DNA of 64,000 bases from an uncultured Actinomycetes bacterium. GTDB lineage: Bacteria; Actinomycetota; UBA4738; HRBIN12. The notes beneath the pieces were generated by a model. That model saw only the letters and a list, made by a program, of their open reading frames with translations, searched no databases and was not told the DNA's origin. The stretch is taken from positions 980,711 through 1,044,710 of the forward strand of contig OY969934.1 of NCBI GenBank assembly GCA_963704725.1, written 5' to 3'. Of this stretch, positions 14,114 through 56,553 are shown one piece after another. The position numbers and the translations under genes were made by a program. The stretch's first letter is position 1; each line of letters opens with the position of its first letter.

Positions 14114-14122
14114 GCTTCGCGC

Positions 14123-14761: not shown

Positions 14762-14764
14762 GCG

Positions 14765-16830: not shown

Positions 16831-17065
16831 CGCTCGTCCTCCTCTTGGTCCTCCAGTGCCAGCGCCAGGTCGACCAGAGCCCGGGCCATCGGGCGCAGCG
16901 CACCCGGCTCGGGAGCATCCGGCCGGTCCACCCCCGGACGCGCAAGCGTAGTCCGGGCAGGTGTCGCTCCCAGGGCGTCGTGCTCGTCGGCCGAAGCCGT
17001 GTTGATCCGGTCGCGACGGCGATCGTGTTCACCCTCGAGTCCGCGCGCATTCGCGCGGCGCGGGG

Positions 17066-26221: not shown

Positions 26222-26241
26222 CGACTAAGGGGAGCAGACCT

Positions 26242-27051: not shown

Positions 27052-27084
27052 GTCCCCGAGTCCGGGGTGGCCGAGCGCACCCAG

Positions 27085-27260
27085 GACGACTTGACCTGCG
27101 CCCTGGACGCGCTGGGTTGGAAGCTCACGCGGACCTCGGGGTGACCTTACGGGTACACACGCCAGGGGACGAGAAGACTTGGCCGGCGCGGGGGTTGGGT
27201 GGGACGACGCCCAACTATCCGCACATGCCGGCGGGCGGACTCGCCAAGCAGTCCTAGGCT
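27085..27260 (+). pseudogene. vestigial RHS core fragment (orphan rhs remnant)
   Basis: Nucleotide similarity to 25010-25200 of the main rhs gene (...ccctggacgc.ctggg...cggacctcggg...gggtgggacgac...). Broken by stops and frameshifts. Confidence 0.5.
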
Positions 27261-27491
27261 GTCGGTCAAGATCACATCGCTAACTCGCCCGCGCTAAGGA
27301 CGGAGTTGAGGAGTCGGCCCACCGCACCGTCGCACTCATGCATCGAGGTCCACGTCCGTGATCAGCCTTCGGACCTGGGCCACCAGAATGCGCCAGGAGT
27401 TCGAGTAGCGTCCCTTCAGGTCCACGCGACCTTCCGGTGCCGGTCTTCGTGTCTGCGAGCGGAAGGGCACCGGCCGAACATCGCGGGGTCG

Positions 27492-28783: not shown

Positions 28784-28990
28784 GTGCGAAGGATACTACT
28801 AGGACGCCTAGAAGGCTACAGAAATGACGAGCACTGGGGAACAGAACGGTCGACCTCTGGTTCCGCGCACCGATCGATCAAACGACGACGGCCACCTGGG
28901 AGAACACGAGGGCGTTGCCTCAGACCAGCGATGGCCCGTAGACAAGCCGCGGCATCCGGTCCGAGCTGCCCGGGGCAGTCGCGAAACAGG

Positions 28991-30163
28991 TCACCTGTTG
29001 AGTTGTCGAGCCAGGTCCTCGAACATGTCGGCGATTTCGATGCGGGAAAGCCCTTCAGGCATCCCCATGGCAGGTCCGTACGCCAGGTTCAAGAAGCAGC
29101 CGAGCACCACGTCGACCTCCGATGCGTCCGCGTCAAGGGAATGCCACGAAGCGTAGTCGCCAGCCGGCTTCGGCTCCCGACGAAGACGCGGAGAGAAGGC
29201 CCGCGCCGTATCCACCTTGCCGACCAGGACATCGAACTCGTCTTCGCCCAGATCATCGATGGTGTGGTCAGTGACTCTCGCCCACGTTTCGAAGAGCTCC
29301 GGGCTGCCTCGCAACTCGAAGGCCTTGGGCGCGAGCTCCATGGTGGTACGTGCGACTTGGAGCGCTTCCCGTAGCACGTCTCGGGCGCCGAGACGTGATT
29401 GCATCCGGCTCCGATGGAGACCCTGGGCAATGAGAAGCGCCGTGGCGCCATCGCGCGCTTGCAAGTCCGGATCGGCGCCGTTCGCCAGGAGGATGCAGAC
29501 GACCGAATCATGACCCCGCTCCACAGCGTGCATCAAGGCTGTCCGACCTGCCTCATCCATTGCGTTTGCGTCGGCGCCCGCTTGGAGCAGCGTATCGATC
29601 CCTGCCGGGTCGTTGAGTCGAGCAGCGAGGACAACGATCGGCGTGCCGTCTCCTCGTCTCTCGTTGGGATCTTCCCTACCTGAGAGGAGGACTCTGAGGA
29701 CCGCTGGCACGGCCGTGTGCTCGACCGCGCCGACGATCAGCGGTTCCTCTCGAGGCAGAGCCGCCGCGCCAGCGCCCAAGAGTGCTTCGAGGATCTTGAC
29801 CTTCGACCTCGAATCGGGCGGGGGACGGAGGATCTCGTGAGCGATGCTTCCGCGCTTGTCTCCGAAGTTGGGGTCAGCGCCATGCTCGAGGAGAAGGGAC
29901 ACCACTTCGGCGTGACCGTGGATCGCTGCCGCTCGAAGAGGCGTCCACTCGCGGCCGCTGACCGAGTCTGGAGATGCCCCAGCATTGAGAAGCAGCCGAA
30001 CGATCTCGACCGCTCCGTCCTGAGCCGCTATGGCGAGTGCTGTATTGCCTCGCGGCGGCGCGGGAAGATTGGGATCGGATCCAGAGCGGAGAGCGCGACC
30101 GACCCCCTCCAGGTCGTTGGCTCGAACAGCGTCCACGAGTTCGTCGCTTTCCACAAGAACCAT
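28991..30163 (-). CDS. ankyrin-repeat protein
   Basis: At least 5 ANK repeats (GNTALAIAAQDGAVEIVRLLLNAGASPD; WTPLRAAAIHGHAEVVSLLLEHGADPN; GRTALMHAVERGHDSVVCILLANGADPD ...). Lower GC than the chromosome background. Confidence 0.7.
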   Translation of the reverse strand: MVLVESDELVDAVRANDLEGVGRALRSGSDPNLPAPPRGNTALAIAAQDGAVEIVRLLLNAGASPDSVSGREWTPLRAAAIHGHAEVVSLLLEHGADPNFGDKRGSIAHEILRPPPDSRSKVKILEALLGAGAAALPREEPLIVGAVEHTAVPAVLRVLLSGREDPNERRGDGTPIVVLAARLNDPAGIDTLLQAGADANAMDEAGRTALMHAVERGHDSVVCILLANGADPDLQARDGATALLIAQGLHRSRMQSRLGARDVLREALQVARTTMELAPKAFELRGSPELFETWARVTDHTIDDLGEDEFDVLVGKVDTARAFSPRLRREPKPAGDYASWHSLDADASEVDVVLGCFLNLAYGPAMGMPEGLSRIEIADMFEDLARQLNR

Positions 30164-30257
30164 CCTAGCGTCGCGTCTCGGGGGTTTGATTACCGTCCGC
30201 TAAACCCCCCTTTCAGCGTGGCAGGCGCGGCCGTCGGGTCGGCCTCCGCCGGGGCAA

Positions 30258-30635
30258 TCAGTACGGAGCCCGCAGCCCCTCGATCATGGGGAAGTGCCGC
30301 ACATTCGTGGTGAGCAGATCTGCCTCGAAGACGATCGCGGTTGCGGCGATCAAGTAGTCGGCGTCGTCGATGCCACTGTGGCTGCGCCTGAGGCGGTGGG
30401 CGAGGGTGCCGGCAGTCCTGCCGATCTCCTCATCGATCGGCGCCCACTCGAGCGAGGAGAAGAATGCCTCCAAGGCCTTCATCTCGGCCTTCCGAACGCC
30501 GGCCAGCAGCTCGAACCGCGTGATCTCGCTTGCGACGAGGGTCTCACCTTCGGAGATCAGGCCGGTGAGCAACTGCGTGGCGGTCGACGCGCCTCGGAGG
30601 TGATCCACGGCGATCGTCGTGTCGATGAGCTTCAC
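30258..30635 (-). CDS. vapC: PIN-domain toxin VapC
   Basis: 125 aa, [15 protein letters not shown]... with acidic PIN residues. Overlaps the vapB stop by 4 nt. Confidence 0.8.
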
Positions 30636-30892
30636 TCGAGGCCGACGCGCCGAAGCCGCTCGTTCAGGTCACCGCGCAAAGCATCCACGTACTCCTCCCC
30701 GGTGAAGCGCCTTCGCTTCCAGCTTGCCGCGCTTCGACGGAGACCCTCCAGGCGGGCCTCCTGCGATGGCTCGCCGAACGTCCTCTGGATCGCGCGACGA
30801 ATCAACTCGGATCGTGAAGCACCGGTCTCCGTGGCCACCTGATCGAGCAGCTCCAGCTCATCCTGACCCAGGTAGACCTGTGTCCGTCCCAT
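30632..30892 (-). CDS. vapB: VapB antitoxin (ribbon-helix-helix/CopG-like)
   Basis: [35 protein letters not shown] has an RHH fold sense. Operon-coupled to vapC. Confidence 0.65.
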
Positions 30893-30968
30893 GCCGCCAC
30901 TATACACCACATGGTGTACCGGTCTGAATGCGTCGGGTTCGGGCTACGGATGGACGACGGCGGCGCGA

Positions 30969-37808: not shown

Positions 37809-39290
37809 TCACAGCGCGGCCGGCGGAGGGTCGAGGACGGGGAGGCCTTCTCGGGCGACGGCCGACCAGAACCTGCCGCTGTCGCGCACCCGGCGCTCCA
37901 ACGTGGCGTAGTCGACATGCACGATGCCGAACCGGGGCCGGTACCCCCGTGCCCACTCGAAGTTGTCGAGCAGCGACCACACGAAGTACCCCCGCAGCGG
38001 GACACCGCGTTCGAGGGCGTCGAGCGCGGCGCCAAGGTGCCGGTGGAGGAAGCGGACGCGCTGCGGATCCCGGGTGGGCTCGAGTTCGTCGACCGGGTAC
38101 GCCGCGCCGTTCTCCGTGACGTAGATCGGGAGGTCCCCGGTCCGCGAGGCGGCGAACTCGAGCACCTCCGTGAGCCCCGGCGGGTACACCTCCCATCCCA
38201 TGTCCGTGCGCTCCTCCTCGGCGGCCGTGGTCTCGAGCGGCGGCAGCAGCGGCGAGCGGACGATCGATCGCGAGTAGTAGTTCACGCCCAGGAAGTCGAT
38301 CGGGGACGCGATGAGCTCGAGGTCGCCGTCCCGGATCTCCTCGCGGCGCCACCCCCACGCCCGGGCCCCGTCCTCCGGATAGCCCCGGCCGGTGACGGGG
38401 TCGAGGAACCACCGGTTCATCTGGTCGTGCGCGACGAGCGCCGCCTCGACGTCGAGCGGATGGCCCGTCGCGGGATGCTGCGGCTCCAGGTTGACGACGA
38501 TGCCGACCGAGGCGTTCGGGGCGGCGGCGCGGACGGCCCGCACGCCGAGCCCGTGGGCCACGAGCACGTGGTGGGCGGCCGCGAGTGCCGCCGCCGGCTC
38601 CGTCCGCCCCGGCGCGTGCGAGCCGACCCGGTACCCGTGGTCGGCGACGATGAAGGGCTCGTTGAACGTCGAGATGTGCCGGACGCGGTCCCCGAGCCGG
38701 CCCGCCACGACCGAGGCGTAGCCGGCGAAGGCGTCGGCGGTCTCCCGGGCGGGCCACCCGCCGGCGTCCTCGAGCGCCTGGGGCAGGTCCCAGTGGTAGA
38801 GCGTGAGGTGCGGGGCGATCCCGTTGGCGAGCAGCTCGTCGACGAGCCGCTCGTAGAAGTCGAGCCCCGCCTCGTTCACCTCGCCGACGCCGGCCGGTAT
38901 GACACGCGGCCACGAGACCGAGAAGCGGTACGCGTCCAGGCCCAGCTCGGCGATGATCGCGACGTCCTCGCGGTACCGGTGGTAGTGGTCGCAGGCGACG
39001 TCTCCGGTGTCGCCGCCTCGAACCCGTCCCGGCGTGTGCGAGAAGCGATCCCAGATGCTCTCGCCCCGGCCGTCGGCGTCCGCCGCGCCCTCGATCTGGT
39101 ACGAGGAGGTGGCGGCCCCGAACACGAACCCGTCGGGGAATCGTTGACCGGTCAGGATGCCTCCATCCGTGAGGTTGCCGAGGTCGCCGAGAGGGTACCC
39201 GGGGAGCGCGGTCCGACGCGCCGAGCCCGGCCTCCTCGGCCCGATAGGATCGCGGCATCCGGACGCCGACCGAATCGCACCGACCTCCAT
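37809..39290 (-). CDS. GH1 beta-glucosidase
   Basis: FPDGFVFGAATSSYQIEG, catalytic acid NEP at TFNEPF, and nucleophile YVTENG. The true start is probably internal to the listed ORF (start uncertain). Confidence 0.75.
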   Translation of the reverse strand: MEVGAIRSASGCRDPIGPRRPGSARRTALPGYPLGDLGNLTDGGILTGQRFPDGFVFGAATSSYQIEGAADADGRGESIWDRFSHTPGRVRGGDTGDVACDHYHRYREDVAIIAELGLDAYRFSVSWPRVIPAGVGEVNEAGLDFYERLVDELLANGIAPHLTLYHWDLPQALEDAGGWPARETADAFAGYASVVAGRLGDRVRHISTFNEPFIVADHGYRVGSHAPGRTEPAAALAAAHHVLVAHGLGVRAVRAAAPNASVGIVVNLEPQHPATGHPLDVEAALVAHDQMNRWFLDPVTGRGYPEDGARAWGWRREEIRDGDLELIASPIDFLGVNYYSRSIVRSPLLPPLETTAAEEERTDMGWEVYPPGLTEVLEFAASRTGDLPIYVTENGAAYPVDELEPTRDPQRVRFLHRHLGAALDALERGVPLRGYFVWSLLDNFEWARGYRPRFGIVHVDYATLERRVRDSGRFWSAVAREGLPVLDPPPAAL

Positions 39291-40224
39291 GAACCCGGCA
39301 CGCGGCGCCATCCTGTGGGCCGCCGACAACCCATGGCTCCGCGAGCACCTGCCGAACTTTCGGTTCGTCCGTCGGAGCGTTGCACGATTCATGCCCGGCG
39401 AGCGCCTCGAGGACGCCCTCGCCGCGGCCGAGAGGCTCGCCGCCGACGGCGTCCCCACCACGTTCACGGCGCTCGGTGAGAACGTCACGACGGAGGGGGA
39501 GGCTCGGCGGGTATTCGATCACTACGTGGAGGCGCTCGCCACGATCGCCGAGCGAGGGTTCGACACCGAGGTCTCGGTGAAGCCGACCCATCTCGGGCTT
39601 GACGTCGGTCCGGATCTGGCCGCGCGGAACCTCGCCAGGCTGGCGGAGGTGGCGGGGGAGCGGGGGAACTGGTTGTGGCTGGACATCGAGTCGAGCCCGT
39701 ACGTCGACCCGACGATCGAGCTCTATCGCGGCGTTCGCCGGTCCCATCCCAACACCGGCATCTGCCTGCAGGCCTACCTGCGGCGGACTCCTCGGGACGT
39801 CGAGTCCCTCCTGCCCGAGGAGCCCTCGATCCGGCTGGTGAAGGGCGCCTACCGAGAGAGCCCGGAGCTCCTCGTCGGCGGTAGGTCCCTGGTCTCCGAG
39901 GCCTACCGCGTGCTCGCGCTCCGGCTGCTCGAGGCCCGGGGTCCGAAGTCGCGGGTGGTGCTCGGCACCCACGACGTCGGCCTGATCGAGCGCGTCGAGG
40001 CCGACGCCACGGTCCGAGGGATCCGGCGCGAGGCCCTGGAGATCGCGATGCTGTTCGGCATCCGCGCGGCCGACCAGCTCCGCCTGGCGCGCGAGGGGTA
40101 CGCGATCCGAACGCTGATCGCCTACGGCGAGTACTGGTACCCGTGGTTCATGCGACGGATCGCCGAGAAACCGGTCGAGAACACGCTGCTGGCGCTGCGC
40201 AACGTCGTGGCCGGTCCCGCCTAA
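39289..40224 (+). CDS. proline dehydrogenase
   Basis: About 310 aa monofunctional ProDH sense (LWLDIESSPYVDPTIELY, RLVKGAY). Confidence 0.75.
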   Translation: MNPARGAILWAADNPWLREHLPNFRFVRRSVARFMPGERLEDALAAAERLAADGVPTTFTALGENVTTEGEARRVFDHYVEALATIAERGFDTEVSVKPTHLGLDVGPDLAARNLARLAEVAGERGNWLWLDIESSPYVDPTIELYRGVRRSHPNTGICLQAYLRRTPRDVESLLPEEPSIRLVKGAYRESPELLVGGRSLVSEAYRVLALRLLEARGPKSRVVLGTHDVGLIERVEADATVRGIRREALEIAMLFGIRAADQLRLAREGYAIRTLIAYGEYWYPWFMRRIAEKPVENTLLALRNVVAGPA

Positions 40225-40272
40225 CGGGCGCGGCGGAGCTCACGGCAGCGGAAGCAGTCGACGGTGTGGTCG

Positions 40273-40300
40273 TTCACGAGACCGCACGCCATGGTAAGAT
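40273..40300 (+). promoter_or_regulatory. candidate sigma-70-like promoter for the serine integrase (TTCACG-16-TAAGAT)
   Basis: AT-richer patch between the proDH stop and the integrase ATG. RBS TAGGGAGG precedes the ATG at 40330. Confidence 0.25.
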
Positions 40301-40329
40301 AGCGCGTAGCTTTCGTAGGGAGGACCGCC

Positions 40330-41616
40330 ATGACCGAGACCAAGCGCGTCGCCGGCTACGTGCGGCTGTCCAAGGAGACCGAGGAGACGACCTCCCCCGA
40401 GCGGCAGCGCCGGGCGATCCGGCGTCTGTGCTCTGATCGCGGCTGGACGCTCTCGGAGACCTTCGAGGACATCGACGTGTCCGCCTACAACGGGCGGCAC
40501 CGGCCGAGCCTGGAGCGGCTCATGTCGCGGCTGGGGGACTTCGACGCGGTCGTCTTCTGGAAGCTCGACCGGCTCTCGCGGTCCTCCGTCGAGGCCGGGC
40601 AGATCGCCGAGCGCTGCAAGGCCGAGGGCGTGGACCTGGTCGCCACGGACATGAACCTGGACACGACGTCGGCCGGGGGGAAGTTCATCTACACCGTGCT
40701 CGCGGCGGCCGGGGAGATGGAGTCGGCCCGCATCTCGGAGCGGTCCCGCTCGATGATGGAGTACAAGCGCGACCGGGGGGAGTGGGTCGGCAAGCCTCCG
40801 TTCGGCTGGCGCGTCAAGGACAAGCGCCTTGTGCCCAACCGCTCGCAGCAGGCGGCGCTCCGCAAGGCCGCACGGGCCTTCGTCGGGGGCGCGACGCTGG
40901 CCGAGTGCGCCCGGATCCTCGGGTTTGACCAGGCGACCGTCGCGCAGCGCATCCTCCGGTCTCCGCGGGTCCAGGTGGCGCTCGGCGCCCTGGGGGACGA
41001 GCTGGCTGCCGCGCTGCGCGCTCGGGCGATGCAGCGCGTACCCGCGTCTCGCCGCTCGCTCCTCGGCGGCATCGCCCGGTGCGCCATCTGCGAGGGGCCG
41101 ATGCGGCTATCGTCCACGCGGGCCGGCCGGCAGGGCCGCTGGACGACGTACCGGTGCACCCAGACCGGGCACGCAGGCATCGCCGGCGTGTGGCTCGAGG
41201 AGTTCGTCTCCGGGGCCGTGCTGGACGCGATCGACCCAAAGGCGCTCGGCCGACGGATGCGCGAGCGCCAGCGGAACCCGAAGGCTGCGGAGATCGCCGC
41301 CATCGAGGCCCGCATCGTCGAGCTGGAGGACATGGTGGGCGACGGCACGCTGACCCGGTCGGCGTTCGTTCGCCAGCGGGACCGCCAGCTGGGCCGGGTC
41401 GCGGAGCTGCGCGGAGTCGACTTGGACTCAGACGCCCCGGATCTGCCGCTGGAGATCGCCCGCAACCTCGGGTCCTACTGGCCGAAGATGACGACCAGCG
41501 AGCGGCGGGACGTGGTGCGTGCCCTCATCCGGCGGATCGTGGTGACCAAGGCGCCGCCAGGATCGAACGGCCACCCCCCGACGGCCGATCGCGTCTCTGT
41601 CGAGTGGCGTGCCTGA
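40330..41616 (+). mobile_element. large serine recombinase (phage-type integrase) of second integrative element
   Basis: VAGYVRLSKE... catalytic serine domain, then recombinase domain, zinc ribbon (CAICEGPMRL...YRCTQ) and a C-terminal coiled coil. Confidence 0.85.
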
Positions 41617-41649
41617 ATTACCGTGTGCGGGGGGCTGGTCTGGCCGGGC

Positions 41650-42195
41650 CTAGGTCGGCAGCGCGACGGCCGTTCGCGACTCCCGCACGGCTTCATCGGC
41701 GAGGGCGTACAGCTGACCCGTGGCGATGCGTTTCCGGAACCCGCACCGGCGGCACCGCAGTTCCTCCCCACGCCGAGCCCGCTGCTTGAGTGTCTCTGAG
41801 TCACGGTAGGAGTAGCCCTTGGGCGCCTCGATCATCGGCACTATCCAACGACGGGTGCGGGGAGCGGTGTTGTCACCGCGGCGCGACAGATCGAGGTGCC
41901 ATCGTGGCCGGTCTCCCGTTACCGCCTCGCCGAGCAGCTGTAGGCGGCCAATCGTTGCGCCGCAACGCGGGCAAGGGACACGAATGACAGGCTTGTTCTT
42001 CACCCTGCCCGCAAGGTACCATGGGCGCCAACCGCACACCTGGGCGAACAGCCCCCGATCGAGTCGCACCGGCAGGCCCAAGTAGGAGGGCCCCCCGGAC
42101 GGGCTCTGGGAGGGGTTGCCCAGATGCTGCCGTTGCTTCTGCGGGTGCCCGAGGCTTGCGAGGCGCTGGGCCTCAGCCGCGAGACCATCCGACAA
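41650..42195 (-). CDS. hypothetical zinc-ribbon protein (weak)
   Basis: Two CxxC pairs (CPRCG...CRRCG). May be a GC artefact, and it overlaps the xis candidate. Confidence 0.2.
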   Translation of the reverse strand: MSDGLAAEAQRLASLGHPQKQRQHLGNPSQSPSGGPSYLGLPVRLDRGLFAQVCGWRPWYLAGRVKNKPVIRVPCPRCGATIGRLQLLGEAVTGDRPRWHLDLSRRGDNTAPRTRRWIVPMIEAPKGYSYRDSETLKQRARRGEELRCRRCGFRKRIATGQLYALADEAVRESRTAVALPT

Positions 42196-42321
42196 CTGCT
42201 GGTGCGGGGGGAGCTAGAGGCCGTCCGTTTCGGTTCGGCCGTGCGGATCACCCGCAGCTCCATCGAGGCCCTCATCAAGCGGCGCACCGGCGCCTCCGCC
42301 AAGGCGGTCGGGGCCTCGTGA
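42124..42321 (+). CDS. xis: excisionase / AlpA-like HTH DNA-binding protein
   Basis: 65 aa. LPEACEALGLSRETIRQLLVRGELEAVRFGSAVRITRSSIEALI matches the excisionase-family HTH. Confidence 0.5.
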   Translation: MLPLLLRVPEACEALGLSRETIRQLLVRGELEAVRFGSAVRITRSSIEALIKRRTGASAKAVGAS

Positions 42322-42576
42322 GCCGCCGCCTCTCGCAGGGAGTGCTCGACGAGGTCGCCGGGGTGCTCGAGCGCGCCGCCGAGCGGCTCGTCCAGAAAAG
42401 CGAGCGGCCGGGATCACGCCCGGGCCTTAACGCAGAGGAGGCCCGGCGGCACACCGGGCCTCGCTCGCAGAACTCGCACCTTGGGCAGGAGCGTCGGCCG
42501 AAGCGTACACCCCGGCGCCCACACGGAGCAGCTGCTTCGGTGGGTGGTGCAGGTGCCCAATGAGCCCCGGGCGTCC

Positions 42577-43149
42577 ATGCGAACGGTCTGGCAGCGGGCG
42601 ATCCGCGAGTCCGCGCTCACGCGGACCACGAAGCTCGTCGCGTTCACGTTGGGCACGTTCATGAACGACATCGCCACCTGCTATCCCTCGCTCCCCAGGC
42701 TTGCCGCCGGCGCGAGCGTCGACGTTGCGACCGTGAAGCGCCACCTGGCGACCCTGGAACGCGCCGAGTGGGTCGCCCGGGCGCGGGGTGGAGGCCGGCA
42801 GAAGACCACCGTGTACACGGGCCGGATACCGGCGCGCGCGTGCGCCGGTTTCGACACCGAGGAACAGGCGCGCTGGTGCGCCCGTTCCGAGGAAACCGGC
42901 GCAGGATCGGCCGGAAACCGGCGCAGGAATCGACCGAAACCGGCGCAGGATCGGCCGGAAACCGGCGCGCCAGTGCGCCTCGAAGTTGAAAGAGAAGTTG
43001 AAAGAGAAGGTGCTGAAGGGGGCAGAACCAAGAGGCGCGCCAGTGGAGAAGGCAGAAGCCAACAGCAAGTCAACGGCTACAGCCACAGGCTCGGCCGTGC
43101 CGCCGAGATCGCGGACTGGGCGCGACAGCTCGAGGAGGCGGGTCAGTGA
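42577..43149 (+). CDS. HTH-domain replication-initiator-like protein with in-gene iteron-like repeats
   Basis: N-terminal LTRTTKLVAFTLGTFMNDIATCYPSLPRLAAGASVDVATVKRHLATLERAEWV is a winged-HTH of the phage/plasmid Rep type. The C-terminal half is encoded by tandem DNA repeats. Confidence 0.45.
   Translation: MRTVWQRAIRESALTRTTKLVAFTLGTFMNDIATCYPSLPRLAAGASVDVATVKRHLATLERAEWVARARGGGRQKTTVYTGRIPARACAGFDTEEQARWCARSEETGAGSAGNRRRNRPKPAQDRPETGAPVRLEVEREVEREGAEGGRTKRRASGEGRSQQQVNGYSHRLGRAAEIADWARQLEEAGQ
42892..42979. repeat. 3.5 tandem copies of a 21-23 bp unit GAAACCGGCGCAGGATCGGCCG (iteron-like), with an inverted partial copy at 42843-42855
   Basis: Directly visible in sequence. The copies are contiguous with no spacers. 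Confidence 0.7.
42985..43008. repeat. 2 x 12 bp AT-rich tandem repeat GTTGAAAGAGAA
   Basis: Directly visible. Lies adjacent to the iteron-like block. Confidence 0.6.
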
Positions 43150-43350
43150 TGGGCGCCGACAGCTCTACGGATCGCACGCCGTGGGACCAGGCCTTCGACG
43201 ACCTGGAAGCCATCCTGCCCGAAGGCCCCGATCCCCGGGACCGGGCGGGCGATGCCTTCCTCAGGCTGGCCCGCAGCTGGGTGCAGGACCCCGACCCCCG
43301 CCGCTACCCGCTCCGCATCGTGACCCAGGCCCGCAGGGAGGTGCGCCGGG

Positions 43351-43590
43351 GTGCCGCGTGAGGACGCGAGGACCCGGGGCGTGCGCCTCCTCGGAGAGGG
43401 GCGGCTCGTCGTGTCGCTCGTGGACGAGGCGACCGTCGTGGCCCGCGTACGCGGCGATCACGGCGTGATCCACGAGGCCGGCTTCCTCCGCGGGCGCTGG
43501 CACTGCTCGTGCCCGGCCAAGACGACGTGCGCACACCTGGCGGCGCTCCAGCTGGTCACCCTCGAACCCGGCAGTCGGATCCTCGGGTGA
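43351..43590 (+). CDS. SWIM-type zinc-finger protein
   Basis: CSCPAKTTCAHLAALQL is a CxC...CxH SWIM signature. Confidence 0.45.
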   Translation: MPREDARTRGVRLLGEGRLVVSLVDEATVVARVRGDHGVIHEAGFLRGRWHCSCPAKTTCAHLAALQLVTLEPGSRILG

Positions 43591-43919
43591 ACGCCGAGCA
43601 GGCGAGCCTTGAGGAGTACGGCGCCGCGATGATCGAGGCCGTACGCGATGCCGGCGAGCGCCGAGCCCTCGAGGCGTCCGGCGACTGGGCCGCTGCCGCC
43701 TGGCGAGCGATCGTACGGCTCGCCCACCATGGCGCGGAGTTCACCGCCGACGACGTGACCGCTGAAGTCGGGCCCGCTCCCAGCAACGGCGCGGCCGGCG
43801 CGCTCTTCCGGGCGGCCAGGAGTGCGGGGTTGATCGTGCGCGTCGGCTACCGCACGTCGCGCCGGGTGTCGCGGCACGGCGGCGTCCAGGCCGTGTGGCG
43901 CGGCCGGGGGGCGACATGA
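43587..43919 (+). CDS. hypothetical protein (phage-like, translationally coupled)
   Basis: GTG overlaps the previous stop (GTGA). Coherent sequence. Confidence 0.35.
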   Translation: MNAEQASLEEYGAAMIEAVRDAGERRALEASGDWAAAAWRAIVRLAHHGAEFTADDVTAEVGPAPSNGAAGALFRAARSAGLIVRVGYRTSRRVSRHGGVQAVWRGRGAT

Positions 43920-44212
43920 GCGCCGCCGCAAGGCCAGGCGACCAGGGCACGGGGGACGGCGCTCCGGTCGAGCTGGACTGGGCCACCTGCGCGGGCTGCG
44001 GCGGCGCGCACCGGGCCGTCAAGATGCCCGACGGGCGCATCGTGTTCACCGAGGAGTGCCCGGGCCGCGACGACCGGCGCAGCGACCTGGCGAACCTTGT
44101 GCACCATGCCGGCGCGGCGATGGTGCTCGCCCTCGACTCCGGCGACTGGGAGCGGGCCGACTACGCCGCGGGCCTTGTGCTGCGTCTCCGCGATCCCAAG
44201 GACCCGGCGTGA
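43916..44212 (+). CDS. hypothetical protein with CxxC..C cluster
   Basis: ATGA overlap with the upstream stop. Confidence 0.35.
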   Translation: MSAAARPGDQGTGDGAPVELDWATCAGCGGAHRAVKMPDGRIVFTEECPGRDDRRSDLANLVHHAGAAMVLALDSGDWERADYAAGLVLRLRDPKDPA

Positions 44213-44384
44213 TGGGCCAGCCCGCACCTGGACGGGCGCCGTCGGCCACGACGTTGGCGACGTCGGGCCGTGGCGCGGGGGAGGGCGGGTGCAGATCACG
44301 ACGGCCCAGGTGCACTGGCGCCAAGCTGGTGGGCAGCCGTGCGGTCGGCGCGCCCCGGTTCAACGAAAACTCCGGCGGCCCCCG

Positions 44385-44708
44385 GTGAAGGACTCCAGCC
44401 GGCCCCCGGCCCCCCGCGGTCTGTCCCCGGCCTCGCGGCAGGTCTGGCGCGACGTGGTGAACGCGTATGCCCTCGACCTGCCGGCGCTCCGGTTGCTGCG
44501 ACTGTTCTGCGAGGCGCTGGACCGCGCCGCCGCGGCCCAGCTGGTGCTCGACGCCGACGGCCTTGTGGTGCGCGATCGGTTCGGCCAGGTGAAGGCGCAC
44601 CCGATGGTCGCGGTGAAGCGCGACGCCGAGGTCGTGTCGGCCCGGCTGCTCCGCGAGCTGGACATCGCCGACGAGCCGCCGCCCGATCCGCGGCCGCCGA
44701 GGCGGTAG
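44385..44708 (+). CDS. phage terminase small subunit, P27 family
   Basis: LSPASRQVWRDVVNAYALDLPALRLLRLFCEALDRAAAAQLVLDADGLVVRDRFGQVKAHPMVAVKRDAEVVSARLLRELDI matches the P27-family pattern (W..v, yC.a, g.vk..P.v.i...a....r.l.eL). Confidence 0.55.
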   Translation: MKDSSRPPAPRGLSPASRQVWRDVVNAYALDLPALRLLRLFCEALDRAAAAQLVLDADGLVVRDRFGQVKAHPMVAVKRDAEVVSARLLRELDIADEPPPDPRPPRR

Positions 44709-44712
44709 CGCG

Positions 44713-45252
44713 ATGCCACGCCGCCCGCGCCCCGATCGCCGACGCGACCTGACCGACGACCAACGCGAGGAGTTGCTGTGGGGGCCGGAGCCCTGCCGGG
44801 CGGCTCGCTGCGGGCCTGCCCACCGCGGCGCCGATGTGCTGCCGCGGATCGGCGCCGCCCCGGACGACGACCCCGAACAGCCGTGGGCCCTGTTCTCCGT
44901 CGCCGCCGGGGGCACGCCGGCCGAACACCGCCCAGTGCGGCGGCCGTGCTGCTCATGCTTCGCCAGCGTGGAGGCCCGCCGGGCCGCGTGGTGGGCCCAC
45001 CGCGAGGAGCTGATGGCCCTGTTGGAGCCGGGGCACGCCGGCCGGCGCCCGTGGGCGTACTGGGCGATCGAACGCCACGAGCGCCCCGCCGACCCGCTGC
45101 GGCGCCTGGCCGAACTGGGCCTGCTCTCGGCCGAGGAGCAGGGGTACATCCTGGCCCAGCACGAGGCCGCGATCCCGCCCAGCCCCTACGCCGATGCCGC
45201 CGCGGCGATCCGCGCCGCCAGGGAGGTCAAGCAGGTTGATCTACCTACCTGA
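44713..45252 (+). CDS. hypothetical protein
   Basis: 179 aa, sits between the terS and capsid genes. No recognisable motif. Confidence 0.3.
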   Translation: MPRRPRPDRRRDLTDDQREELLWGPEPCRAARCGPAHRGADVLPRIGAAPDDDPEQPWALFSVAAGGTPAEHRPVRRPCCSCFASVEARRAAWWAHREELMALLEPGHAGRRPWAYWAIERHERPADPLRRLAELGLLSAEEQGYILAQHEAAIPPSPYADAAAAIRAAREVKQVDLPT

Positions 45253-45468
45253 CGTGTACGTGGGCGGGTGTACGCTGCCCATCGCACGGGCCGACCGGCG
45301 GCCCCTCGACGACGTATCCACCGACCTCCGGGCGGGACAAGCGGACCGCCCCCGACCCCGACCCAGCCCGCCGCGTATCGGGCGCGGCCCGGACCTCAAC
45401 CACTCACATCCCCGCGCCGCCGCGGTCGAAGCACCCCTCCCGCCGGCGCATCCAGAAGGAGGCCTCCA

Positions 45469-46557
45469 GTGACGCGCACAGAGCGTCTTGCCCGCTGCCA
45501 GGAGATCGTGAACCAGAGCCGAGGCCGGACACGCACGCCGGCGGAAGAGGGCGAGTTGCAGGGCCACCTCGACGTGCTCGAACGGGACCAGCAGCTGGAC
45601 CGCGAAACCCAGCGACTCGGCGCGCTGTTCGAGGGCGCCAGCATCGGCCAGGGGGCCCGTCGTGGCCGCAGCTTGCACGGCGCATTGCTGGCGGCAGGCT
45701 GGCAGTTGGGCGGCCCGCCGGTGCGGCTGCCGATCGGCGCCGTCCTGATCGATGACCCCGGGGACGCGGCGCCGCTGCGCGACGAGTCGAGCATCATCCG
45801 GCAAGGCGCGGATTCGAGGCGACTCTTCCCTGTGTTGGAGCGCAGGCCGCTCAACGGTGCCACGCGAATCGACGTGCTCGTGAGCACCGGACGAGTGCTC
45901 GCGAACCCCGAGGAGATGCAGCTGCCCATCGCGGGCAGCGGGGAGAAGCCGATCACCAGCTCCGGCGCAGAGCTCCAGAGCTTCGACGTGGGCATGGTGG
46001 CCACGGTGAGCGACCCGTACCCCAACAGCATCGTCGAGCTTGAGGCGTTCCGCGATCTCGTGGACGACGACATGACGGTGGCGTTCGAGGACTCTCTGGA
46101 CAACCTCGTGGTTGCCACCATCACCCTCGGGGCGGGCACCACGGACGATCCCGGTGGCGACCTGCTCGAGCAGCTCCGCCGGGCCGTGACGGCCATCCAG
46201 GGCGCGGGCTTCGCTCCCAGTCTCGCCGCGGTGAGCCCGGAGCAGGCCGAGCAGCTGGACCTCACCAGGGCCGGCTCGGGGGGCGACCCGGACGAAGGAC
46301 CGTTCCTGCTCACACCATCGCCGAGGGGGTCGGCCTTCTCGCCGCTGTGGGACCTCCAGCTGCGGGTGGTAAAGGGCCTGGAGGCAGCCGTGGTGCTGGA
46401 CCCGGGCGCGGTGAGGCTCTACGTCGACGACGCGGCGTTCGACTCGGACCCGTACTCGCAGTTCAGCACCAACCGGACGCGGTTCCGCGTCGAAGCGCCC
46501 GCCGTGCTCGTGGTCCGCCGGCCCATGGGCATCTACGTGATCGCGTCGGTCTCGTGA
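45469..46557 (+). CDS. phage major capsid protein candidate (HK97-like)
   Basis: GTG with GAAGGAGG RBS. N-terminal coiled coil followed by a roughly 300-aa body ending ...AVLVVRRPMGIYVIASVS. HK97-fold-like pattern, tentative. Confidence 0.5.
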   Translation: MTRTERLARCQEIVNQSRGRTRTPAEEGELQGHLDVLERDQQLDRETQRLGALFEGASIGQGARRGRSLHGALLAAGWQLGGPPVRLPIGAVLIDDPGDAAPLRDESSIIRQGADSRRLFPVLERRPLNGATRIDVLVSTGRVLANPEEMQLPIAGSGEKPITSSGAELQSFDVGMVATVSDPYPNSIVELEAFRDLVDDDMTVAFEDSLDNLVVATITLGAGTTDDPGGDLLEQLRRAVTAIQGAGFAPSLAAVSPEQAEQLDLTRAGSGGDPDEGPFLLTPSPRGSAFSPLWDLQLRVVKGLEAAVVLDPGAVRLYVDDAAFDSDPYSQFSTNRTRFRVEAPAVLVVRRPMGIYVIASVS

Positions 46558-47023
46558 CGACCGCCGCCGGCCCGGCCACGGATCGGGCCCAGGAGCCGCG
46601 GGGCGTACAGGTGCGCGAACGCGGCTGGTACCAGGAGCGCCTCGACGAGATCCAGGACGAGCGCGGGGTGCCGGATGCGGAGATGGTCTGGTGGCCGGTG
46701 TCGCGCACCGCGTGAGAAACAGTCCCCCTGCCCGTCATGCGCCGGTAGGGGGCCGGCGTGGGGGAGGCCCTCTGGCCGGTGGCTTCCCCCGCGCACTACT
46801 TGGCCGGGGCCCATGGTTACTCCGCGCTCGGGCGGCGGCGAGCGAACGATGCGGCGCTCCCGGTGCCCCGGCCAGGTGTCTTCTGACGGGCGAAGCGCCG
46901 CACCGCCGCAGGTGGTGGGGGGATCGGCCGCAAGGGCCGACCTCCCCACCGCAACCGTCAAGTTGCTTGACCGTCGGCGTACCATGCCGCCGTGGGCGGA
47001 CACGACCTCGCGGGCCCGGCCCC

Positions 47024-47785
47024 TCACACCAGCGGGCTCGTGTCCGGGGCGCCTGGGCCCGCGTAGGCCACCACTCTGGCCACAGGTGCAACAGCGGCAA
47101 GCTCGGGCTCGTCCCAGGCCCCGGCGGGCAGCGGCTTCGCGGTCTGGGCGGGCGTCGGGGCAGCCCTGGGCGCCGGGCCCCGCAGGCGGGCCGTCCGCCA
47201 CGTCTCCCATGCCGGGTCCGCGTCCGTGGGGCGCACGCCATCGGCGGCGCGCACCATCAGGGCGCCCAAGGTCCGCAAGGCCCGGCTCGCCGCGTCGTAC
47301 GCGGGGTCGTCGCGATCGTGGGTCACCAGATAGTCGATCGCCCGGGCGGCCTCCGCGATCGCCTCTGCCGCGACGGAGCGGGCCGCGGCCACCGCCGGCA
47401 CCTTGGCCCGCCCGCCCGTGCCCCGGCTGCGTGTGGGGGACCGGATCTTCTTCGCCTCGGCGTAGCACCGGCCGAAGGGCGGCCTGCCAACCTGGTTGGC
47501 ACCTCCATACCGCCACCAGACGGCCGCCTTCCTGGCGATGTGCGTGTCGCTCTGCCCGATCTCGTTTTCCAGCTGCCGGGCGGACTTGCCGTCGTCAAGC
47601 TCGGCGGCGATCAGCCTCGCCTCCTCCCAGCGGTGGGGTTCGGCCAGGCGGTCGTGGTCGGCCACGGCGGCTTCGTGGTCGGCGATGGCGGCTTCGTGGT
47701 CGGCGATGGCGGCTTGATGGCGCCGGATCTCCGCCACCCGGTCGGCGGCAACGTCCACGGCCCGCAGTGCAGTCACGGCGCACAT
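47024..47785 (-). CDS. hypothetical protein with internal HEAAIAD tandem repeats
   Basis: Non-low-complexity 253-aa ORF. Contains 21-bp DNA tandem repeats (47659-47721). Confidence 0.3.
   Translation of the reverse strand: MCAVTALRAVDVAADRVAEIRRHQAAIADHEAAIADHEAAVADHDRLAEPHRWEEARLIAAELDDGKSARQLENEIGQSDTHIARKAAVWWRYGGANQVGRPPFGRCYAEAKKIRSPTRSRGTGGRAKVPAVAAARSVAAEAIAEAARAIDYLVTHDRDDPAYDAASRALRTLGALMVRAADGVRPTDADPAWETWRTARLRGPAPRAAPTPAQTAKPLPAGAWDEPELAAVAPVARVVAYAGPGAPDTSPLV
47659..47721. repeat. about 3 x 21 bp tandem repeat GCGGCTTCGTGGTCGGCGATG
   Basis: Directly visible. Encodes (A)DHEAAIA repeats on the minus strand. Confidence 0.6.
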
Positions 47786-48138
47786 CCTTCATCGCCCCGG
47801 CGCTGCCTGGCAAGCCCGAAAGGGATGGGTCCGCAGCCCTTGCACCGCAACGATTCCGAGGGGCCGGTACACCGGGTGTACCGGGCCAGGGCGTCAGCGG
47901 ATGAGTGAAGCCGTTGCACCGCAGTTGTCTTGGAGCCAGCCGGCCGCTCGACACAAACGAGTCGCCCGCACCGTGAGCGCGGGGCACGCCGCCAGGGGGG
48001 TCGGGGGGGGGCCGGCGTCGCAAGACAGCAGCTGATTCGTACCCACACCAGGGCCCCTCACGAACTACACGAACAGGGATAACTCAGCCCTGACCAGTGC
48101 CATTGACACAGGGCCCACACCTCTGTCATCCTCTAAGG

Positions 48139-48600
48139 GTGGTTGACTTGAAGCAGGCCTTGTCCGATGCCAGGCTCCGGCTGGAGCAGGCTGAGTCCGA
48201 ACACGCAGAACTCGAGGCTCGTATCGCTCGACTCCACGATGAGGTGCGCGGGCTAGAGCTGGCCCTGGCGCATCACGGCGGCGGCGAAATCGAGGTCCTG
48301 ACCCGGAAGACCGGCTGGGGGCGGATCTCCAGGACCAAGGCGATCCTGAACCTGCTCCAAGAGGTCGGCCGCCCTATGGGCCCTTCCGAGATCGCCGCTC
48401 AGCTGAGGGAGCGCGGCCGGGTCAAGGAGAACCCCAGATACATCTCGGCTTCCTTGGCCTACCTCAAGAACAACCACGTCGTTCGGTCGGTGGGCAACGG
48501 GAAGTGGCAGCTCATGGAGGTCCCGAAGAACCAGTCCTCGGGCGTCGGGCCGCTCGGCCCGGCCTTCGAAACCGCCCGGGCGCGGCCGGAGGGAGGCTAG
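48139..48600 (+). CDS. hypothetical coiled-coil / winged-helix regulator-like protein
   Basis: GTG start lies downstream of a lower-GC patch with a perfect TTGACA at 48103-48108. The C-terminal part is wHTH-like. Confidence 0.4.
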   Translation: MVDLKQALSDARLRLEQAESEHAELEARIARLHDEVRGLELALAHHGGGEIEVLTRKTGWGRISRTKAILNLLQEVGRPMGPSEIAAQLRERGRVKENPRYISASLAYLKNNHVVRSVGNGKWQLMEVPKNQSSGVGPLGPAFETARARPEGG

Positions 48601-48964
48601 GGGGAACACCTTCCGGGGCGCCGGGGAAACTGGGCCCTCCGGATGGGAGCTGGGAGCAACGGGCCATCGAGGCCGCTTGGGATTCCAAGCCCGAAGCGGA
48701 GGCGCCCGGGTCGTGCGGTCGGGGGTCCAAACCCCGAGCACCCGCCCGACCACGCTCCCAGCTCCTACTCTACCCCGGGGATCGGGCCCGGCTCTGTAGC
48801 GGGCTGAGGAGCATCCGGCAGTGGGTGCCGGAACCGATGAGTATCCTGGTGATAGGTCCCGGGATGGCCGAATGGCCTTCCGGGGCGAAGGGCCCTAGAG
48901 GTCCGGACGACCACCAGGCCCTAACGAAGCCGGGCAGCCGGGTTCGACTCCCGGGCTAGGCGTT

Positions 48965-48995
48965 GCCGGAGGCCACCTCGGCGGTGGCCTCCGGC
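48965..48995. terminator. perfect 13-bp stem / 5-nt loop hairpin (GCCGGAGGCCACC tcggc GGTGGCCTCCGGC), with no U-tract
   Basis: Directly visible. It sits 3 nt after a tRNA-like T-arm fragment (48938-48962). Confidence 0.35.
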
Positions 48996-49111
48996 GTATC
49001 TGAGAAGCCGAGGAGGTGACGGGGAGCGCTCAGGATCGGCCGAGGCTCCGGGGGGCCTGACACCGGGCAGAGCGACTTAGGAAGACCGCCGGGCGAGCCG
49101 ATGAAACAGGC

Positions 49112-49417
49112 ATGAACGTCGCTCTGCCACCGCCGCCCGTCCCCGGACCTGCGCTCGGATCGGTTCCCCGGCAGACCCCTCGAGTCGTGCAGCAGGCCCC
49201 CAAGGCCGCACAGCGGAAGAAGCAGTCCTCGGCGGAAGCGGTCGTCATCGTCGTGCTCGTGCTCCTCTTCGCCCTCTCCGCCTGGGCCTTCGTCAACCCC
49301 CACGCGAACGTGCCCGTGGTCTCGAAGGTCGTCTGCTCGATTAAGGGCGCCTCGTGGACCGACGGGAGCGCCGCCTGGGGCATCCCCGCCGGGTGCTACC
49401 GGATGGACTCGCCCTAG
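49112..49417 (+). CDS. small membrane protein (hypothetical)
   Basis: One clear TM helix (VVIVVLVLLFALSAWAF). Confidence 0.3.
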   Translation: MNVALPPPPVPGPALGSVPRQTPRVVQQAPKAAQRKKQSSAEAVVIVVLVLLFALSAWAFVNPHANVPVVSKVVCSIKGASWTDGSAAWGIPAGCYRMDSP

Positions 49418-50019
49418 CTGCTCGGATCGGGGACTGTCAGGCCGCCTCCGAGTTCCGCGTATCGGAAGCAGGATGCTATGTGCCCATTGACTAAGCCGCA
49501 CGCCTGCAGGAACGCGTAGCAGATCGTGGGGCCGACGAAGCGGAAGCCGCGACGCTTGAGGTCCTTGCTCATCGCTTTGGCCTCGGGGCTCTCCGAGGGG
49601 ATCTCGGCGCCGGCCTTCCACGCGCCCACGATCGGACGGCCCCCGACGAACGACCACAGATACGCGTCAAGCGATCCGAGCTCCTTCCGCACGCCGAGCA
49701 CCGCGCGGGCGTTGGCGACGGCGGCATCGACCTTCAGGCGGTTCCGCACGATGCCGGGGTCGAGGAGGAGACGGTCGACCTTGGCCGGGGTGAACCGCGC
49801 CACCTTCGCCGCGTCGAACCCGGCGAACGCCTTCCGGTAGCCCTCGCGCTTGTTGAGGATCGTCCACCAGGACAGGCCGGCCTGCGCGCCCTCCAGCACG
49901 AGCATCTCGAACAGGTGCGTATCGTCGTGGGACGGCACGCCCCACTCCTCGTCGTGGTACGCAACGTAGCGGGGCTCGCTCTGACGAGCCCACGCGCAGC
50001 GAACGACGGCCTTGGACAC
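49414..50019 (-). CDS. tag: DNA-3-methyladenine glycosylase I
   Basis: YHDEEWGVP..., with the Tag Cys/His zinc-binding pattern. Confidence 0.8.
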   Translation of the reverse strand: MSKAVVRCAWARQSEPRYVAYHDEEWGVPSHDDTHLFEMLVLEGAQAGLSWWTILNKREGYRKAFAGFDAAKVARFTPAKVDRLLLDPGIVRNRLKVDAAVANARAVLGVRKELGSLDAYLWSFVGGRPIVGAWKAGAEIPSESPEAKAMSKDLKRRGFRFVGPTICYAFLQACGLVNGHIASCFRYAELGGGLTVPDPSS

Positions 50020-55842: not shown

Positions 55843-56085
55843 CCAGCCCGGGCGTAGTCCCGGCGGGTCATCCGCCTCGGGTATTTCGGGGCGTTCGATT
55901 CAGGTTCGGGGGTCCCCCTGCCGATATCAAGTCCGCAGGTTGGTCCCGAAACGGCAAACCGCCGGGAACGGCGGGGCGCAAAGCTACGGGCCCTAACGCT
56001 CTTGGAGCGCGGGCGGCCGAGCTGCCGAAGGACGGGCCTCCACCCGGAGCCCGGCCTGCCGGGACCCTGAATACGGGAGTCAGGG

Positions 56086-56553
56086 ATGGCGCGAGTGAGC
56101 TGGCGGAGCGGGTCGCGGATCGCGGCGGTGCTCCTGCTGAGCGTCTCCCTCCTGCTGACGGGGTTCGCGACCGACCACGCCCGAGCCGGCCAGGCCGCGC
56201 ATGACCGTTCGGTGATGCTCCAGCTCACGAACGAGGCGCGTGCGATGAAGCATCGCGACGCTCTCGAGCTGGATCGGCAGCTCTCGAAGTACGCCCTCAG
56301 GCACTCGCGTGCCATGGCGGCGAACCAGGAGCTGTTCCACTCGACGGACCTCGCGGGTGTGCTGGGGGGCCGCGACTGGTCGATCGGGGGCGAGAACGTG
56401 GGCTACGCCTCGTCCCTCGACGACCTGCAGGCCTCCTTCATGGGGTCGAGGCTCCACCGCCGGAACATCCTGCGGTCGGAGTTCGACCACACGGCGATCG
56501 GGGTCGTCGCGTCAGACGGGAAACTCTGGGTGACCGTCATCTTCTACGGCTAG
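56086..56553 (+). CDS. secreted CAP/SCP (PR-1-like) domain protein
   Basis: Signal peptide plus HTNEARA..., HSRAMAANQELFHS and GENVGY motifs. Confidence 0.65.
   Translation: MARVSWRSGSRIAAVLLLSVSLLLTGFATDHARAGQAAHDRSVMLQLTNEARAMKHRDALELDRQLSKYALRHSRAMAANQELFHSTDLAGVLGGRDWSIGGENVGYASSLDDLQASFMGSRLHRRNILRSEFDHTAIGVVASDGKLWVTVIFYG

Follow-up and report, generated by a model that had tools for sequence, protein, structure and literature searches.

Gene content of the interval between proDH and tag

The window analysed here, a 64-kb stretch of DNA from an uncultured lineage of Actinomycetota, contains a string of mostly plus-strand genes between proDH (39157-40224; Pfam Pro_dh) and tag, which encodes a 3-methyladenine glycosylase (49414-50019, minus strand; Pfam Adenine_glyco, 2e-79). 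This string is probably an integrative phage satellite of approximately 9.2 kb, of the type of the phage-inducible chromosomal islands (PICIs) and phiRv1, residing in the 3' end of tag. An earlier note on this DNA had described a satellite-like element with its own capsid and small terminase genes, and all features it named were found at or near the coordinates it gave. The flanks carry housekeeping genes, GH1 and proDH on the left and tag and an aldehyde dehydrogenase gene on the right. Since the GC content of the window is about 72%, listings of open reading frames (ORFs) consist mostly of spurious frames, and the real genes were chosen by the GC content at third codon positions (GC3) together with the frame plot. 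The genes of the element are intact, and starts and stops overlap (GTGA/ATGA) at 43146, 43587, 43916 and 46554, which locates the translational coupling of small ORFs that had been proposed.

Major capsid protein and small terminase subunit

The gene at 45469-46557 (plus strand) encodes a protein of 362 aa and is preceded by a strong ribosome-binding site (RBS), GAAGGAGG, 6 nt before the GTG start, as the earlier note had stated. That the product is a major capsid protein (MCP) of the HK97 fold was confirmed only by way of a family profile and a predicted structure. The protein alone has no match in Pfam, PHROG or NCBIfam, including PF05065 (Phage_capsid), and only four near homologues were found. 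The profile built from four sequences yielded nothing useful in a PDB sequence search. An exhaustive profile search revealed 563 relatives, and 97 full-length ones were used for the family alignment and profile; Pfam Phage_capsid matched 46 of these 97. When compared to solved capsids, the 97-sequence profile matched those of D3 (3.5e-24), phiXacJX1 (4e-16) and HK97 (4e-10). With this alignment the AlphaFold (AF2) model of the MCP reached a pLDDT of 87.7, while the four sequences gave an unusable model (pLDDT 36). According to our Foldseek analysis the model resembles HK97-fold heads throughout (D3, 5.9e-14; HK97 Head II, 1e-11; TM to HK97 0.76 on target), with actinophage capsids lower in the list and encapsulins at rank 37, below the phage heads. 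The best matches in BFVD were HK97-family MCPs.

Residues 1-75 of the MCP form long helices which align with the delta domain of D3, and the N-terminus is therefore predicted to be a fused helical delta- or scaffold-like domain. Only four columns are invariant in the 97 sequences, namely K160, G247, N335 and E342. K160 aligns to HK97 K169 (residue 66 of chain 1ohg_A), and N335 and E342, which are seven residues apart, fall on the N and on the first E of NMVTIxAEE, a motif present in D3 and phiXacJX1; we take these two positions to be HK97 N356 and E363. As judged from the alignment, the family thus keeps the HK97 chainmail cross-link triad (K160/N335/E342), which suggests that selection maintains these capsid proteins in a functional state and able to assemble. 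Downstream, with a GTGA overlap at the MCP stop, follows orf53 (46554-46715, plus strand; 53 aa). Its homologue in the related element L001 shows 60% identity over 25 aa (L and P numbers are our handles for the loci compared), and ORFs of 40-55 aa are found in the same position in L001, L002, L007, L009 and the P0006 locus.

The gene at 44385-44708 (plus strand) encodes a small terminase subunit (TerS) of the P27 family with 107 aa. The earlier call holds both by profile, since PF05119 (Terminase_4) is matched with 25.3 bits at a gathering score of 24.7 and phrog_83 with 4.3e-9, and by homologues: a database search found 38 of them, mostly of 106-111 aa, which match PF05119 and are often named 'P27 family' in their source. 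On TIGR01558 the protein scores 27.4, under the cut-off of 45.6. Neither the single sequence nor a profile had a useful match in a PDB sequence search. An alternative start at 44289 has a better RBS and would give a protein of 139 aa; because of the length of the homologues it was rejected and the start was placed at 44385.

Directly after TerS lies orf179 (44713-45252, plus strand; 179 aa), which had no match in Pfam, PHROG, NCBIfam, PADLOC or PDB searches and shows no protease signature. Since homologues of orf179 directly follow TerS in L021 (8e-10) and L033 (4e-9), the two genes appear, by sequence, to be a conserved pair; weaker matches are present in L013 and L018. The orf179-like sequences are located at 5508-5696 in L021, 6008-6364 in L033, 879-1421 in L018 and 10344-10742 in L013, and a motif of this family, W..(H/N)R..LM.L...G.RP..WW, is found after P27-type TerS in small elements. 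The function of orf179 may be packaging interference or that of a TerS partner.

At this point it has to be considered whether the capsid gene serves something other than DNA transfer, as a head-assembly decoy in a defence island or as an encapsulin-like compartment, in an element that spreads independently of a helper. Encapsulins have the same fold, and since the element has no portal, its MCP must engage foreign parts anyway. Further, satellites commonly interfere with capsid assembly of their helpers (PMC10085698). Nevertheless, we regard such a use as rather improbable. TerS and its conserved partner are linked to the MCP gene in the window and in L018, which points to DNA packaging and not to interference alone. 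Phage heads outscore the encapsulins in Foldseek, no cargo-type gene is present, PADLOC finds no defence gene in the element, and interference and transfer are not mutually exclusive.

Integrase, regulatory and replication genes

The gene adjoining the left attachment site (attL) at 40330-41616 (plus strand; GC3 0.94) encodes a large serine recombinase of 428 aa with a Resolvase domain (Pfam, 4.7e-34), and GGGAGG is present 7 nt before its ATG, in agreement with the serine integrase with its own RBS described before. The zinc ribbon scores 22.6 bits with Zn_ribbon_recom at a cut-off of 25.3, and PF07508 was not reported in the Pfam scan. The earlier note had also spoken of genes with their own promoters, but a promoter consensus scan found no sigma-70 site.

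The next ORF (41650-42195) is on the minus strand, as favoured by its GC3 frame pattern. It is Cys-rich with two CxxC pairs, its product would have 117-143 aa from internal starts, and no match was found in any profile library searched. It is probably a real minus-strand gene, and it occupies the position of a satellite repressor. The gene at 42124-42321 (plus strand) encodes an Xis/AlpA-like helix-turn-helix (HTH) protein of 65 aa (Pfam HTH_17, 7.1e-13), which fits the excisionase named earlier and is a candidate recombination directionality factor and/or regulator. An HTH_17-family gene after the integrase is also found in L002, L008, L009, L011, L013 and L026.

The replication initiator gene (Rep; approximately 42577-43149, plus strand, in an ORF open from 42481) encodes a lambda-O-like winged-helix protein, which matches HTH_36 (1.8e-7) and phrog_391 'replication initiation O-like' (1.5e-10). 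Inside the ORF a cluster of iterons (42825-42968, plus strand) represents a putative origin. The iteron GAAACCGGCGC is present in four exact copies at 22-nt spacing, one copy with one mismatch and one inverted copy, so that the HTH Rep-like gene with iterons was recovered with six copies. This layout recalls lambda O and ori.

Four small plus-strand ORFs lie between Rep and TerS. The first (43146-43361; 71 aa, GC3 0.90) has a GTGA overlap with Rep. The second, SWIM79 (43351-43590; 79 aa), has a homologue with 46% identity in the L001 element; its designation as a SWIM protein stands as far as the SWIM-type motif CxCx6CxH is concerned, but not for a Pfam SWIM match, which was not obtained at E<=0.01. 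The third (43587-43919; 110 aa), again with a GTGA overlap, matches phrog_27658 and phrog_21939 (PHROG, 5.8e-12) and also has a homologue in L001. The fourth (43916-44212; 98 aa, GC3 0.92) contains Cys residues and is ATGA-coupled.

Integration site and boundaries of the element

A pseudo-copy of the last approximately 24 codons of tag, in the attL region (40221-40292), occupies 70 nt after the stop of proDH. Read on the minus strand it encodes MACGLVNDHTVDCFRCRELRRAR followed by a stop, which overlaps the proDH stop. The functional 3' end of tag (49435-49506, minus strand) represents the right attachment region (attR). True C-termini of tag are ACGLVNDHVASCFRYAELGGK in L005 and ACGLVNGHIASCFRYAELGGGLTVPDPSS in the window, where the protein ends with GLTVPDPSS, versus K or T in relatives. 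The two copies form an imperfect repeat in register, 9,214 bp apart, with the exact blocks CGGAAGCAG, TGTG and CCGCACGCC in common, and apart from 49435-49506 no repeat was found to match the left junction. The junctions are placed within 40249-40268 and within 49463-49482.

When the outer halves are joined, the reconstructed attB, ...GGCAGCGGAAGCAG[TCGACGG/GATGCTA]TGTGCCCATTGACTAAGCC..., gives an intact tag ORF with its stop overlapping that of proDH. Joining of the inner halves results in a reconstructed attP, ...GAGTTCCGCGTATCGGAAGCAG[TCGACGG/GATGCTA]TGTGGTCGTTCACGAGACC..., which encodes a mimic of the tag C-terminus, and therefore tag stays intact after integration. The relative L005, whose proDH is 80% identical, does not contain the element: its gap between proDH and tag is approximately 590 bp, versus 9.2 kb in the window. 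Homology between L005 and the window stops at about 40260-40266 and resumes at 49444, and no homology was detectable between the L005 spacer and the right end in the window. Judged by these comparisons, the element appears to be a discrete unit of approximately 9.2 kb (40249-49471) in the 3' end of tag, which also covers everything encoded to the right of the MCP gene, orf101 included. The size of about 8.5 kb given earlier has to be corrected accordingly, the end lying about 470 bp further to the right, and the T-arm and hairpin which had been taken for the right end are internal, since the repeat places the boundary at tag.

One candidate for attR at 46568, which was the best match by inverted-repeat symmetry, was rejected because it would cut off the conserved orf53; the att candidates in register show no symmetry. 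An inverted repeat of 15/16 nt consists of GGTCGTTCACGAGACC at 40268-40283, in the region of the integrase promoter and P' arm, and GGTCTCGTGACGACC at 46549-46563. The latter copy sits at the MCP stop and orf53 start, and the inverted repeat is incompatible with attR.

The proDH-tag interval is variable in relatives. L005 retains an orthologous relic of the tag C-terminus (TDCFRFRELGGRR followed by a stop) beside proDH, and its interval (10937-11575) contains this relic plus a 56-aa coiled-coil ORF. In L006 approximately 6 kb of unrelated genes are found in the interval (10931-16760). Because of the relic in L005 and the other genes in L006, the tag end appears from the sequences to be a recurrent, variable hot spot of insertion.

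Genes and structured region at the right-hand side

To the right of orf53 lies orf253 (47024-47785, minus strand; GC3 0.89), which encodes an accessory protein of 253 aa with HEAAIAD tandem repeats and had no match in profile-library, PADLOC or PDB searches. It is followed by a gene for a coiled-coil and winged-helix protein of 150-167 aa (48148-48600, plus strand; HTH_12 2.6e-4, just under the cut-off) in a region of lower GC content (0.64 at 48000-48499), and by about 500 nt without coding signal. In this stretch, 48601-49000 (plus strand) is structured (fold z = -4.3) and contains a mimic of a tRNA 3'-end (48938-48962), which is composed of the T arm CCGGG-TTCGACT-CCCGG and a 7-nt acceptor strand and is unique in the window. 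A perfect hairpin of 13 bp (48964-48995) comes directly after it. The lower-GC gene, the tRNA-like T-arm and the perfect hairpin were thus all found as described earlier. Neither ARAGORN detected a tRNA nor Rfam a match in the T-arm region. The structured stretch could have been left behind as an att site by an ancestor that targeted tRNA genes, or it could function as a terminator or as a structure related to pac or cos. The last gene before tag, orf101 (49112-49417, plus strand; GC3 0.89), encodes a predicted membrane protein of 101 aa; the gene is enclosed by the two repeats, and neither L005 nor L006 has it.

These features raise the question of whether the locus is composite, with the satellite ending at about 46.7-47.0 kb or about 48.96 kb and the right-hand 0.5-2.7 kb (orf253, the winged-helix gene, the non-coding stretch and orf101) being older debris from earlier occupants of the tag hot spot. 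The winged-helix gene is lower in GC, the tRNA 3'-end mimic resembles what would remain of the att site of a relative that targets tRNA genes, and for the right-hand genes no homologues were found in the related elements. Moreover, the tag end is recurrently hit, as seen from the relic and 590 bp of unrelated DNA in L005 and the other genes in L006, and thus a composite origin of the right-hand part is conceivable. We consider it unlikely, since the left junction has its sole counterpart in the repeat in tag, and since in relatives with exact att repeats, too, the MCP gene is followed by unrelated accessory genes over 3-4 kb, some of them on the minus strand, at a total length of about 10 kb.

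A family of related small elements

At least ten related small elements of 8.6-10.4 kb share the same gene order and contain tyrosine or serine integrases. Around the relatives of the MCP the layout is integrase, HTH_17 gene, replication gene, small ORFs, MCP gene and an overlapping ORF of 40-55 aa, and it is found, with neither the gene of the large terminase subunit (TerL) nor a portal gene, in L001, L002, L007-L010 and the P0006 locus. The integrase in elements with MCP relatives is a tyrosine recombinase, in L002 and L004 a serine recombinase. The replication gene encodes an AAA_25 helicase, an HTH_36 Rep or a DUF927 primase. In two of the elements, L001 (10.35 kb) and L008 (9.86 kb), the ends are marked by exact repeats of tRNA 3'-ends with 43 nt and 47 nt, respectively.

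Homologues of TerS are present in 29 IMG/VR contigs. Four contigs of this database with 8.7-10.4 kb (L017, L018, L019 and L026) have direct terminal overlaps of 119-127 nt and were therefore assembled as circles. The gene order of the window element recurs in the circular 9.6-kb contig L018, which encodes a serine integrase, a primase, TerS, an orf179-like protein of 180 aa and an MCP. None of the related small elements has TerL or a portal. In the true phage contig L040 genes for TerL and portal come after a homologue of TerS, and this contig is an example of the phage type that could act as a helper.

Scans with MCP patterns revealed one locus only in genome contigs and none in metagenomes or IMG/VR; an MCP alignment of 15 sequences had proved too diverse to be used in a locus scan. 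In a comparison by hhalign, the MCP profile had no clear match among candidate ORFs of L019 and L026.

Several sister elements that contain neither portal nor TerL encode proteins resembling tape-measure proteins (PhageMin_Tail or tape-measure PHROGs). They are located at 11326-13764 in L001, 5961-8297 in L009, 13732-15747 in L013, 9740-12562 in L031 and 11419-13374 in L020. The protein of L013 contains a lysozyme-like part, and the neighbouring gene encodes an SDH_protease in L009 and a tail tube in L020.

Virion genes missing from the element

Scans with Pfam, PHROG and NCBIfam detected no gene for TerL, portal, head-tail connector, protease, tail, holin or lysis in the element. Further, because the largest unassigned ORF has 253 aa, none could encode TerL or a portal. 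The statement of the earlier note that large terminase, portal, protease, tail and lysis genes are missing is thus supported by library scans and ORF size. Adjacent tail, portal or TerL genes, which according to that note would have pointed to a degraded prophage, were searched for and not found, the neighbours being housekeeping genes. When compared to an autonomous temperate phage, the element does not have TerL, portal, tail and lysis genes; and in no ORF did we find a domain of an FtsK/SpoIIIE-type Tra translocase or of RepSA/RepAM, the hallmarks of actinomycete integrative and conjugative elements. The view that this is a satellite and not an autonomous phage is supported by the capsid and TerS assignments, the missing TerL, portal and tail genes nearby, the discrete insertion and the existence of a family with the same gene order.

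Other features of the window

A second island of approximately 15 kb (15151-30257), which is absent from L005, lies directly 3' of tRNA-Ala(cgc) (15250-15324). It encodes a large serine recombinase of 559 aa, Replic_Relax and AAA_14 proteins and a giant CBM96/PA14/RHS protein (18894-26221). Its GC content is comparatively low (0.61-0.69), neither a direct repeat of the tRNA end nor phage structural genes were found in it, and it is unrelated to the satellite. Next to it, at 30258-30910 (minus strand), a gene for a PIN-domain toxin and its small upstream partner are likely to form a toxin-antitoxin pair, which is kept beside the tRNA-Ala locus in L005. Finally, a c-di-GMP-I-GGC riboswitch (55944-56030, plus strand; 64.6 bits at a gathering score of 59) is located just upstream of the ORF 56086-56553.

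Proposed life cycle and significance

From the parts list, the insertion and the conservation of the family we infer that the element would depend on a helper phage. A helper siphovirus with an HK97-like packaging module of P27-type TerS, TerL and portal would infect the cell or be induced. The satellite would then be derepressed, and the serine integrase together with the HTH_17 protein as directionality factor would excise a 9.2-kb circle. The O-like Rep would bind the six iterons in its own gene and recruit the replisome of the host or the helper. Satellite TerS, possibly with orf179, could divert the TerL of the helper onto satellite DNA, while the satellite MCP with its fused delta or scaffold domain would assemble on the helper portal into shells sized for approximately 9 kb. 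These shells would be matured by the helper protease and locked by isopeptide bonds between K160 and N335, with E342 as the catalyst. Portal, protease, TerL, connectors, tail and lysis functions would be supplied by the helper.

Several observations weigh against a satellite of this kind. The predicted delta domain of the MCP would have to be removed by a protease, for which the element contains no gene, and none of its genes was identified as its regulator. The inverted-repeat symmetry of P and P' arms, as in serine integrase sites, was not found at the junctions, and the attP junction pattern of the excised form was not detected in JGI metagenomes or IMG/VR. No match to the MCP and TerS was obtained by tblastn against 50,697 phage genomes, no prophage was found in the 64-kb window, and no helper phage is known. 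Last, no element of the phiRv1 class was demonstrated to form particles (PMC12268328, PMC10654092).

Some of these points would also fit a decaying remnant of a full prophage, which has lost TerL, portal, tail and lysis genes and is immobile and non-functional. Only a subset of virion genes is present, the search for the excised form was negative, and elements of the phiRv1 type were initially termed 'prophage-like', evidence of particles being absent (PMC12268328). At the same time, the same minimal gene set and order recurs in at least ten independent elements of 8.6-10.4 kb with differing integrases and att sites, and exact att repeats and circular assemblies exist among the relatives. In addition, the genes show no damage and retain their translational coupling, all 97 MCP relatives have the cross-link triad, and none of the ORFs is a pseudogene fragment of a larger virion gene. 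Decay of a prophage is thus a very improbable origin of the element, and we return to the satellite.

If the element is a satellite, an own capsid needs little, namely one self-scaffolding, cross-linking MCP and TerS, and the phiRv1-type design extends well beyond Mycobacterium into uncultured Actinomycetota. Since profiles of Pfam, PHROG and NCBIfam do not detect the MCP clade, such elements would escape the satellite and virus finders in present use, and the 97-sequence family alignment could serve as a new marker. Further, with the hot spot at the tag end and the gene-end-mimicking attP, a candidate pair of attB and attP is precisely defined for a new serine integrase. In practice, work on the system is limited by an uncultured host and the lack of a known helper.

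A more far-reaching idea, which we put forward tentatively and with more doubt than conviction, is that these elements could represent a clade of their own that has so far escaped notice, namely 'minimal capsid' satellites of uncultured Actinomycetota. Their virion-related genes would then be three: a self-scaffolding, self-cross-linking MCP, a P27 TerS and the TerS-adjacent partner. Such satellites might build their own small shells around a stolen portal and could stand between the capsid-remodelling PICIs and the capsid-forming PICIs (cf-PICIs). Further unusual traits would perhaps be an attP which is used by a serine integrase and imitates the end of the target gene, and the tape-measure-like proteins in sister elements.

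Comparison with known satellites

The element resembles phiRv1 in being an integrative element of about 10 kb in an actinobacterium, with a terminal large serine integrase and a small excisionase-type HTH protein. Both do not have portal, TerL, tail and lysis genes, and for both neither helper nor particles were demonstrated. There are also differences. The Rep in the window is an initiator of the lambda O type whose gene contains the iterons, while phiRv1 has a primase, and the gene between TerS and the MCP gene, orf179, is not a recognisable prohead protease. Moreover, the MCP clade has diverged so far that it obtains no direct match in Pfam or PHROG, and the element targets the 3' end of tag and brings a mimic of the gene end. 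The target of phiRv1 is reportedly the REP13E12 repeat. In phiRv1, genes for integrase, excisionase, primase, terminase, prohead protease and capsid are found in 10 kb, and by this published gene list the two elements are collinear, with a replication gene, TerS, one gene and an HK97-family capsid in the same orientation (PMC12268328).

Elements like phiRv1 and phiRv2 are called PICIs by SatelliteFinder (PMC10085698), and the Hatfull laboratory defined mycobacterial 'candidate PICIs' by the presence of an integrase and a capsid gene; some of them have serine integrases and lie outside tRNA genes, and induction by phage was not demonstrated (PMC10654092). The earlier note had considered satellites with capsid genes poorly documented in Actinobacteria. 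This is only partly true in view of the integrase-plus-capsid elements documented in Mycobacterium (PMC10085698, PMC10654092).

By its sequence, the element in the window appears to fit in function the five-component definition of a PICI used by SatelliteFinder (de Sousa et al. 2023, PMC10085698). It has the integrase at one end, a capsid component and TerS, and the canonical order (integrase, regulator of the AlpA/MerR type, replication module, capsid-related gene, TerS) is matched, with candidates in the second and third slots. The regulation slot is taken by the HTH_17 protein (7e-13, according to Pfam scoring and not to SatelliteFinder profiles), the primase-replicase slot by an O-like initiator with iterons and no primase, where relatives have AAA_25, DUF927 or a primase. 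The genes forbidden in PICIs (tail, holin, portal and connectors) are absent, and the size is close to the PICI median of 9.5 kb (PMC10085698). Unlike the typical PICI with its tyrosine recombinase, the element uses a serine integrase; it encodes a full-length cross-linking MCP instead of a protein that redirects capsid size, and its host belongs to an uncultured lineage of Actinomycetota.

The cf-PICIs carry genes for portal, maturation protease, head-tail adaptor, connector, TerL and HNH and need only the tails of a helper (Alqurainy et al. 2023, 10.1101/2022.09.08.507074). With them the element shares its own HK97-fold MCP and TerS, and satellite-specific capsids are presumed for it. Because portal, protease, connectors and TerL (and HNH as well) are absent, it is not a cf-PICI. 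Thus, the resemblance to capsid-forming PICIs seen by the earlier note holds for the broader PICI definition but not for the strict one, as the head and packaging set is missing. The Streptomyces satellites MulchRoom and MiniFlayer are likewise actinobacterial and have their own capsid and TerS genes, but they differ in being larger and in having TerL, portal, scaffold and head-tail adapter, and MiniFlayer has no integrase (PMC10690885). In summary, the concept, a PICI of the phiRv1 type, is already published; what is new here is its occurrence in an uncultured actinobacterial lineage and a capsid clade that was missed by standard profiles.

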